From positions 1-43,359 of the IMG/VR virus record IMGVR_UViG_2541047745_000011: a stretch of DNA of 43,359 nt. One strand, given 5' to 3'. This DNA is from a virus. Taxonomy: Duplodnaviria; Heunggongvirae; Uroviricota; Caudoviricetes. A program made the translations under genes and the position numbers. The notes below the pieces were generated by a model, which saw only the letters and a program-made list of their open reading frames with translations, had not been told where the DNA came from and searched no databases. Below, one piece after another: positions 33,318 to 34,339 of the stretch; the stretch's first letter is position 1, and the number at the start of each line of letters is the position of its first letter.

Positions 33318-33641
33318 ATGGATGCACAAACACGCCGCCGCGAACGTCGCGCAGAGAAACAGGCTCAATGGAAAGCAGCAAATCCCCTGTTGGTTGGGGT
33401 AAGCGCAAAACCAGTTAACCGCCCTATTCTCTCGCTGAATCGCAAACCGAAATCACGAGTAGAAAGCGCACTAAATCCGATAGACCTTACAGTGCTGGCT
33501 GAATACCACAAACAGATTGAAAGCAACCTGCAACGTATTGAGCGCAAGAATCAGCGCACATGGTACAGCAAGCCTGGCGAACGCGGCATAACATGCAGAG
33601 GACGCCAGAAAATTAAAGGTAAATCTATATCACTTATTTAG
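33318..33641 (+). CDS. N: N antitermination protein (lambda-type)
   Basis: [105 protein letters not shown] nearly identical to lambda N; start at internal Met of track ORF. Confidence 0.9.
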
Positions 33642-34137
33642 AAAATGCAGATTTAGGGAACAGATAGGAGGCGTTACACCTATGGCATCTCATCCTATGG
33701 TTAGAAGGTGGTGCAAATCCTTCGTATTGAAGTATGGATTTCACAGAAGATTCATAGCATTGAGCGCAAAGATAGTGCATTGGCTGACCGGTATTTGCCG
33801 ATTTTTTGAGACGATAAACCACCGTAGCAACAGTAGGAGTATACATCTCATAGTTTTTCTTTTCCTCTTCCCACTTAGAGGCTCGATTTATCTTTTCTTC
33901 AAGCTCAATGATCTTGTCCTTAGAAATCATCAAAAGCTCATTAAGTGACATTTGCTGCTGTTGGGCATCCATGAGCTTATCGACAAGTTCGTATGTTTTT
34001 TCTTTTACTGAGTAGTCTATTTGCATTTTCTGGATTTCCTTTACTGCGCCAACAGCACTCATCAGAGCACCTCCGGCACCAGAAACTGCATCTGTAATCC
34101 TACTTATTATTCCTTTTTCATCAGACATATAAATCAC
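33634..34137 (-). CDS. Hypothetical coiled-coil protein with C-terminal CxxC...CxxC zinc-ribbon; antisense accessory gene between N and cIII
   Basis: 167-aa ORF (possibly starting at Met 4) on the opposite strand to the PL operon; AT-rich; Cys motifs CAQCYES...CHRCNAS; no family recognised. Confidence 0.5.
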
Positions 34138-34339
34138 TCTCTTACTGTAGGGGTAAGAGGATTTTACTATTTTTCTCGCTGTAGGGGTACACGAGAACCA
34201 CCGAGCCTGATGTGGTTAAAAGACAGGCATACTAATAAACACTGCACTGTGTATTCATTCCAACGAGTGAATACACGGAGCAATGTCGCTCGTAACTAAA
34301 CAGGAGCCGACTTGTTCTGATTATTGGAAATCTTCTTTG

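Follow-up and report, generated by a model that had tools for sequence, protein, structure and literature searches.

A rip1 gene behind a sieB-type promoter in a P22-like prophage, very probably an abortive-infection defence

Introduction

Between the N antiterminator gene and the cIII-like gene of a P22-like prophage, an open reading frame (ORF) runs against the direction of the PL operon. This raises the questions of what the gene encodes, how it could be expressed from the strand opposite to its neighbours, and what it might do for the phage or for the lysogen. The DNA analysed here, called the window throughout, is the whole stretch of 43,359 nt, and the prophage that it holds has a P22-type portal (15610-17808, minus strand) and a P22-type tailspike head-binding domain. 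An earlier inspection of the letters without database searches (the sequence-only reading) had taken the ORF for an accessory gene at a classical moron site, with a new anti-phage or anti-host function as a candidate role. Below, the gene, its protein product and the DNA upstream of it are taken in turn.

The gene, its start codon and its composition

The PL operon lies on the plus strand of the window, and the features of the region are collected in Table 1. As the sequence-only reading had described it, the antisense ORF is present on the minus strand (33634..34137) and converges on N. It counts 167 aa from a GTG at 34137 and ends with a stop at 33634-33636, the stop regions of the two genes sharing 8 nt. 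The true start is most likely the ATG at 34128, downstream of the in-frame GTG, which gives a protein of 164 aa. This start is preferred because a Shine-Dalgarno-like run, AAGAGAG, lies 8-14 nt upstream of it, and because the close homologues and the protein chain of a solved structure (PDB 9OOX, see below) are all 164 aa long.

The GC content of the ORF is 0.398; that of the window is 0.473, the early-left genes downstream reach 0.459 and the cI/immunity region 0.418. This is a mild dip and no strong anomaly. The description of the gene as strongly AT-rich was thus overstated, as the nearby sequence has values of 0.42-0.46, and the argument for recent acquisition from composition is weak. Exchange of the gene as a cassette is better evidenced by alignments, in which the sequence identity between loci breaks at the rip1 start codon and at the N stop.

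Table 1. Features of the immunity and early-left region of the prophage, in window positions
Feature	Position	Strand	Basis or remark
cI-like repressor gene	31954-32640		
N antiterminator gene, lambda-type	33319..33641	+	Tail-to-tail with rip1; the stop regions overlap
rip1 coding sequence, 164 aa plus stop	33634..34128	-	
Beta-rich C-terminal domain, residues 93-158, zinc-ribbon-like, four invariant Cys	33655..33852	-	AlphaFold and alignment
Long helix, coiled-coil-like stalk, residues 39-90	33859..34014	-	AlphaFold
Gly/Ala-rich N-terminal helix, residues 7-33	34030..34110	-	AlphaFold, low confidence; conserved in alignment
Conserved sieB-type promoter block, 86 bp	34145..34230	-	Alignments with lambda, P22, HK620 and HK446
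Direct repeat copy 2, CTGTAGGGGTA	34145..34155	+	Starts at -1/+1 of the predicted transcript
Predicted transcription start, A of ACCCCTACAG	34154	-	Homology to the P22 sieB RNA start site (inferred)
-10 hexamer TAAAAT (TAAACT in lambda and P22)	34161..34166	-	Alignment
Direct repeat copy 1, CTGTAGGGGTA (TACCCCTACAG in gene sense)	34179..34189	+	Overlaps -35 hexamer and spacer
-35-like hexamer TGTACC	34186..34191	-	Alignment to the annotated P22 PsieB
Inverted repeat GTGTATTCA-N10-TGAATACAC, 9-bp arms	34249..34276		Separate spacer module
Intrinsic-terminator-like hairpin and T run, homologue of tL2A (HK620)	34339..34356	+	Scan and HK620 annotation
Second terminator-like hairpin and T run, homologue of tL2B (HK620)	34377..34396	+	Scan and HK620 annotation
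cIII-like gene, next in the PL operon	34431..34563	+	

Identity of the protein

Homology searches and structure prediction, two of the checks that had been proposed along with the candidate role, led to a known defence protein. The product of the ORF matches the Rip1 chain of phage HK446 in PDB entry 9OOX at 163 of 164 residues (E 1.4e-105), and the only substitution is a tyrosine at position 96 (Y96) where HK446 Rip1 has a histidine (H96). Besides this homology to characterised Rip1 proteins, the gene has the setting of a stand-alone prophage gene opposite in strand to its neighbours, here antisense within the PL operon of a P22-like prophage. From N to cIII, the window and HK446 agree at 98.8% of DNA positions; the gene is gp37 of HK446, where its product carries the annotation hypothetical protein. 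The profile libraries returned a single unnamed family, phrog_1244 of PHROGs (E 4.6e-53). Searches of the protein against Pfam, NCBIfam and PADLOC gave nothing significant; the best match in the PADLOC 2023 defence catalogue, a database older than the Rip1 paper, was PDC-M53B at an E value of 0.012, below significance. An exhaustive profile search collected 3152 cluster representatives at E <= 0.001, which is consistent with the wide distribution reported for Rip1. The gene is thus already known: its product has been published as a defence protein, with the structure solved (9OOX) and the mechanism described. Of the proposed role, the anti-phage part stands and the novelty does not.

[quoted passage not shown] 2026, Nature 651:1060; PDB 9OOX). 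Its mechanism is taken here second-hand, from what a review (PMC13434031), a meeting report (PMC12908700) and a citing paper (PMC13601566) relate of it. According to these accounts, Rip1 is a single-protein abortive-infection defence that is non-toxic when present alone, and escaper mutations fall in the portal of Pseudomonas phages or in the small terminase of E. coli phages. Cryo-EM reportedly revealed 12 Rip1 subunits around an 11-mer small-terminase ring, and the assembly is described as a pore on the evidence of dye release from liposomes and holes in cells. On these accounts, the pore would disrupt the infected cell before phage maturation is complete.

An AlphaFold model of the window protein, built on a 19-sequence alignment (mean pLDDT 74.7), predicts the architecture of Rip1, with an N-terminal helix followed by a long helix and a C-terminal domain. 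The N-terminal helix corresponds to the part of Rip1 that the review describes as amphipathic and pore-forming (PMC13434031). The long helix reached block-mean pLDDT values of about 57-86, higher toward its C-terminal end, and the beta-rich C-terminal domain was predicted well. The CxxC...CxxC ending noticed earlier is present in this domain as C121, C124, C148 and C151 (164-aa numbering), and these four cysteines are invariant in 19 homologues down to 41% identity. The match of this C-terminus to Pfam Zn_ribbon_4 is weak (E 0.091). It is the C-terminal half of Rip1 that touches the small-terminase ring in the review's account (PMC13434031).

We therefore regard it as very probable that the ORF is rip1, a prophage abortive-infection defence driven by a sieB-type promoter, in which the rings of the invading phage template the pore. 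The analysis of the window contributes the identity to the reference protein, the match in fold and architecture, the prophage context, the location at the sieB site and the homology to an annotated promoter; the trigger, the stoichiometry, the pore formation and the abortive infection come from the literature.

A sieB-type promoter upstream of rip1

An 86-bp block upstream of rip1 recurs almost unchanged in lambda, in front of sieB, and the coding regions behind the two copies are unrelated. In the curated P22 record BK000583, the homologous stretch is annotated as the sieB promoter and bears a misc_feature, 'sieB RNA start site'. It had been reasoned that the antisense gene needs its own promoter, and the homology to the annotated P22 promoter and RNA start suggests that it has one. 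The -35-like and -10 hexamers are separated by a spacer of 19 nt, and a transcript from the predicted start at 34154 would have a leader of 26 nt. A consensus sigma-70 promoter scan made no call at the homologous PsieB site, which is explained by the poor -35 element (TGTACC with the 19-nt spacer). From the homologous promoter we infer that rip1 is expressed in this prophage.

It could be argued that the gene is a silent passenger in a decaying prophage, intact in frame and either unexpressed or no longer useful. IS1 and IS21 elements interrupt the prophage, which may be defective given these insertions, and the promoter consensus is weak. We nevertheless find this very unlikely. The insertions leave rip1 itself unaffected, and the ORF and the promoter block are both intact and at least 99% conserved in 12 of the 12 matches listed. 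Among 5426 complete E. coli genomes, 96 contain the region in full, and viable phages that include HK446, ev099 and vB_EcoP-720R6 carry it as well. In E. coli strain 317 (NZ_CP023357) the stretch 33634-34330 is matched with 100% identity. The homologous P22 promoter, moreover, has an annotated RNA start site. The occurrence of rip1 in those 96 E. coli genomes is useful when the phage susceptibility of strains is to be predicted.

The sieB slot and its interchangeable cargo

The sieB gene of lambda (34482-35036 in that genome) is oriented against PL, and its end is one base away from the N stop. In the window, rip1 occupies exactly this slot in the same orientation, tail-to-tail with N. The accessory gene thus sits, as supposed, at a classical moron site, the one that holds sieB in lambda and P22. 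This site is flanked by N/24 on one side and by ral/cIII on the other, and the gene in it lies antisense to PL and behind PsieB. What is shared with sieB is the locus and the promoter, not protein ancestry.

The promoter block is widespread. Its 29-nt core was found at at least 119 IMG/VR loci, and the block is present in 128 phage records. When a 697-bp query that includes the block was compared with 5426 E. coli genomes, about 2240 of them matched it in some part. For a survey of the cargo, viral contigs with the 29-nt core were collected and the first ORF behind the core was taken. Lambda-type SieB was found at 29 loci, P22-type SieB variants of 179-195 aa at about 50, a 166-aa SieB-like type at 8, Rip1 at 15, and a second 164-aa protein, with the start MDVLSGITAAK, at 8. 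This last protein is homologous to Rip1 at 27% identity and belongs to the HK620 HkaP type. There are thus at least five cargo types behind one block: three SieB types, Rip1 and HkaP-like proteins.

More distant copies of the block were also seen. The phage vB_EcoM-689R2, by its name a myovirus, has an 83%-identical copy of the block, and behind it (positions 321-890 of that locus) a Rip1 homologue of 189 aa with an extended C-terminus. This diverged block keeps both copies of the 11-mer treated in the next section. The finding argues that the promoter-plus-cargo cassette moves beyond the classical lambdoid phages. In a Klebsiella phage, a remnant of the block is followed by no gene, and both 11-mer copies are gone from it. 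As Rip1, HkaP-like proteins and three or more SieB types are interchangeable behind one conserved promoter block, the N-proximal lambdoid slot is a convenient place for finding further single-gene exclusion functions.

The shared site also bears on function, as the protein might be a functional analogue of SieB that aborts infection by the SieB route instead of through a ring-templated pore. SieB and Rip1 are both prophage-expressed exclusion functions; the slot, the orientation, the promoter block and the paired repeats are those of lambda and P22 sieB, and hkaP of HK620, the 27%-identical homologue, is annotated as a 'putative superinfection exclusion protein'. The proteins themselves, however, make a SieB-like action highly improbable. 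The window protein has no sequence similarity to SieB, gave no SieB family match in Pfam, PHROGs or NCBIfam, and is unrelated to the SieB cargo sequences of the same slot. SieB has hydrophobic membrane segments and no Cys motif, whereas no multi-pass membrane segment like that of the SieB sequences is predicted here, and the two share no common family. Above all, the protein is near-identical to one solved in complex with a terminase ring. At the level of regulation, P22 sieB has an internal Esc product and the sas antisense RNA, and no equivalent of these was found in the window. Action as Rip1, with a pore built on the rings of the invader, is therefore the reading that we follow.

The paired 11-mers in the promoter block

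Both copies of CTGTAGGGGTA lie exactly where the sequence-only reading had placed them (Table 1). The 11-mer does not occur elsewhere in the window even with one mismatch; 0.26 occurrences were expected, and 4 of 100 shuffles reach two. At least one direct pair of 11-mers within 60 nt arises in 44% of simulated sequences, so a single pair alone is not significant, and the reality of this pair rests on its conservation. Indeed, every cargo class has in gene sense the order TACCCCTACAG, CGAGAAA, a variable stretch with TAAAAT or TAAACT, and (A/C)CCCCTACAG, with a copy-to-copy spacing of 34 bp that is constant in all classes. The repeats are not specific to Rip1, being inside the 86-bp block common to lambda, P22 and HK620.

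This distribution bears on the earlier suggestion that the repeats bind the prophage repressor, which now appears unlikely, since they are unchanged in the heteroimmune phages lambda, P22 and HK620 and sit at the -35 element and the transcription start. Operators of this prophage's own repressor were rejected as an explanation on the same ground. The literature that was covered, which leaves the 1993 sieB papers and the Rip1 paper outside, yielded no description of the 11-mers. Tentatively, and with more doubt than confidence, the block may be seen as a portable regulated expression cassette for swapping exclusion cargo, with the 11-mers as sites for a host or phage factor or as elements of RNA-level control. 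The cassette would extend over lambdoid and some Mu-like coliphages, with SieB types, Rip1 and HkaP as cargo and the TACCCCTACAG copies at -35 and +1. If so, its control would set the timing of the cargo and spare the resident phage upon induction.

Alternatively, the protein might be a nucleic-acid-binding protein of the zinc-ribbon kind that regulates the PL region, for instance through the nearby repeats, and no defence effector. This would suit its four-Cys zinc-ribbon-like C-terminus and the conserved repeats that adjoin rip1, but is hardly credible: the repeats are equally conserved beside unrelated SieB cargo and are thus not private operators of Rip1, the Pseudomonas homologues lie in the packaging module without the block, and the partner in the solved complex is a terminase ring, not nucleic acid.

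Other symmetrical elements were seen nearby. Upstream of N, at 33040-33085, there are two operator-like palindromes, TACCTGCAGGTA (perfect) and TACCTGTAGGTA (imperfect), which form OL in this immunity type. Their likeness to CTGTAGGGGTA is superficial: OL is immunity-specific and the repeats are not. The upstream half of the promoter block (34190-34230) contains two overlapping, mutually exclusive palindromes, GCCTG-N14-CAGGC and AACCAC-N10-GTGGTT, in the interval of about -45 to -75 relative to the predicted start. Neither varies among lambda, P22, HK620 and the decayed Klebsiella copy, and our guess is that they could represent the 3' end of a sas-like antisense RNA or a factor binding site. 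A hairpin of 7-9 bp (CTCTTAC / GTAAGAG) at 34138-34160 has repeat copy 2 in its loop, and its 3' arm includes the Shine-Dalgarno-like AAGAGAG. A transcript from 34154 would be without most of the 5' arm, so that the ribosome site could be masked only by read-through from further upstream.

The spacer module and the terminators

The inverted repeat with 9-bp arms, GTGTATTCA-N10-TGAATACAC, was likewise found at its reported position, but its supposed tie to rip1 did not hold. In the window, 6 distinct inverted repeats have perfect 9-bp arms and a short loop, a number not above chance, as first-order Markov simulations gave 3.8 +/- 2.7. Moreover, the repeat belongs to a separate spacer module, which is present in HK620 and HK446, adjoins Rip1, HkaP and P22-type SieB cargo alike, and is missing in lambda, which has orf28 and ral after the block. 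An operator for rip1 was rejected on account of both the chance frequency and the separate module. The left arm has C>T in 5 of the 15 rip1 loci, and this change would keep a G-U pair in the PL-sense RNA only, a hint that the repeat may form an RNA hairpin in the PL transcript.

The alignment of this region to HK620 is 93% identical overall, and the stretch from the ATG to cIII (34129-34400) is about 99% identical to the hkaP-cIII spacer. The HK620 record annotates tL2A and tL2B as PL-sense terminators, and homologues of both are listed in Table 1. A search of 32900-34700 against Rfam gave nothing credible, with all E values above 0.2 and all scores below the gathering thresholds.

Proposed action of Rip1 in the lysogen

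In the lysogen, rip1 would be transcribed from the sieB-type promoter, antisense to the PL operon and probably at a low constitutive level. Rip1 is expected to be harmless until a superinfecting phage builds ring-shaped morphogenesis oligomers late in infection, the trigger presumably being the small terminase for coliphages and the portal for Pseudomonas phages. The four-Cys C-terminal domain would dock round the ring (12 Rip1 to an 11-mer small terminase), and the N-terminal amphipathic helices would then assemble into a membrane pore. Such a pore would collapse the inner membrane before the invader finishes its assembly.

After induction of the prophage, N-antiterminated PL transcription would run antisense through rip1 and may damp it. 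This antisense damping is a possible route for the resident phage to escape self-exclusion, loosely analogous to sas/Esc of P22. The prophage's own small terminase (19222-19662, minus strand) was compared with 9OOX as a possible partner of Rip1; it was matched by Sf6 gp1 structures over the C-terminal 38 residues only, and no 9OOX chain matched it.

Comparison with known systems

HK446 Rip1 resembles the window gene in its length of 164 aa, its position between N and PL-operon genes, its orientation and the block upstream. The two phages differ in that an anti-restriction (ral-like) gene separates the block from cIII in HK446 but not in the window, and in that HK446 is an HK97-like siphovirus, whereas the window phage is P22-like in its portal and the head-binding domain of its tailspike.

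Homologues in Pseudomonas phages (DMS3-25, D3112 orf25 and JBD30/JBD69) belong to the same family; they align over about 85% of the length at about 30% identity (E 1e-17 to 1e-18), and they too are prophage-encoded on the strand opposite to their neighbours. Unlike rip1 of the window, they lie between the small-terminase(-like) and large-terminase genes of Mu-like phages instead of in the early-left operon, and they are without the sieB-type promoter block. The position of the DMS3-25/D3112/JBD gene is the one given for Pseudomonas Rip1 in the review cited above, which reports the portal, not the small terminase, as the trigger there (PMC13434031).

HkaP of HK620 (and of HK629/HK630) is also 164 aa long, has a helix plus four-Cys layout like that of Rip1 and occupies the same slot. 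The identity of 27% (E 2e-13) was measured on the HkaP-like 164-aa cargo with the same start. Up to the ATG, the promoter, the spacer and the tL2A/tL2B region of HK620 are near-identical to the window. HkaP is a diverged allele, and in HK620 an additional gene, hkaQ, separates hkaP from N. A literature search on hkaP and HK446 Rip1 gave nothing useful, and the Fc02 exclusion-gene paper was set aside as a parallel because it covers other genes, which adjoin the repressor.

Other features of the prophage

Apart from rip1, the immunity region has a 104-aa ORF with a hydrophobic N-terminus at 32637-32951, immediately downstream of and overlapping the cI-like repressor gene. It had no match in Pfam or PADLOC, and from this rex/moron position it is a candidate for a second prophage-expressed accessory gene. 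The IS21-family element lies on the plus strand at 23569-25370, between phage genes of the minus strand, and encodes a 340-aa IstA-like transposase (rve, HTH) and a 260-aa IstB ATPase. A PADLOC match of the IstB protein to 'DrmD' was rejected as evidence of a defence gene, as it most likely reflects similarity to IstB-type ATPases. An IS1 transposase ORF (3433-3936) adjoins the P22-type tailspike gene (1295-3415), which encodes the head-binding domain plus a beta-helix. A lacY gene at 42112-43359, whose product matches the LacY proton/sugar symporter (E 5e-192), continues past the right-hand limit of the window, which places the early-left end of the prophage next to the chromosomal lac region.
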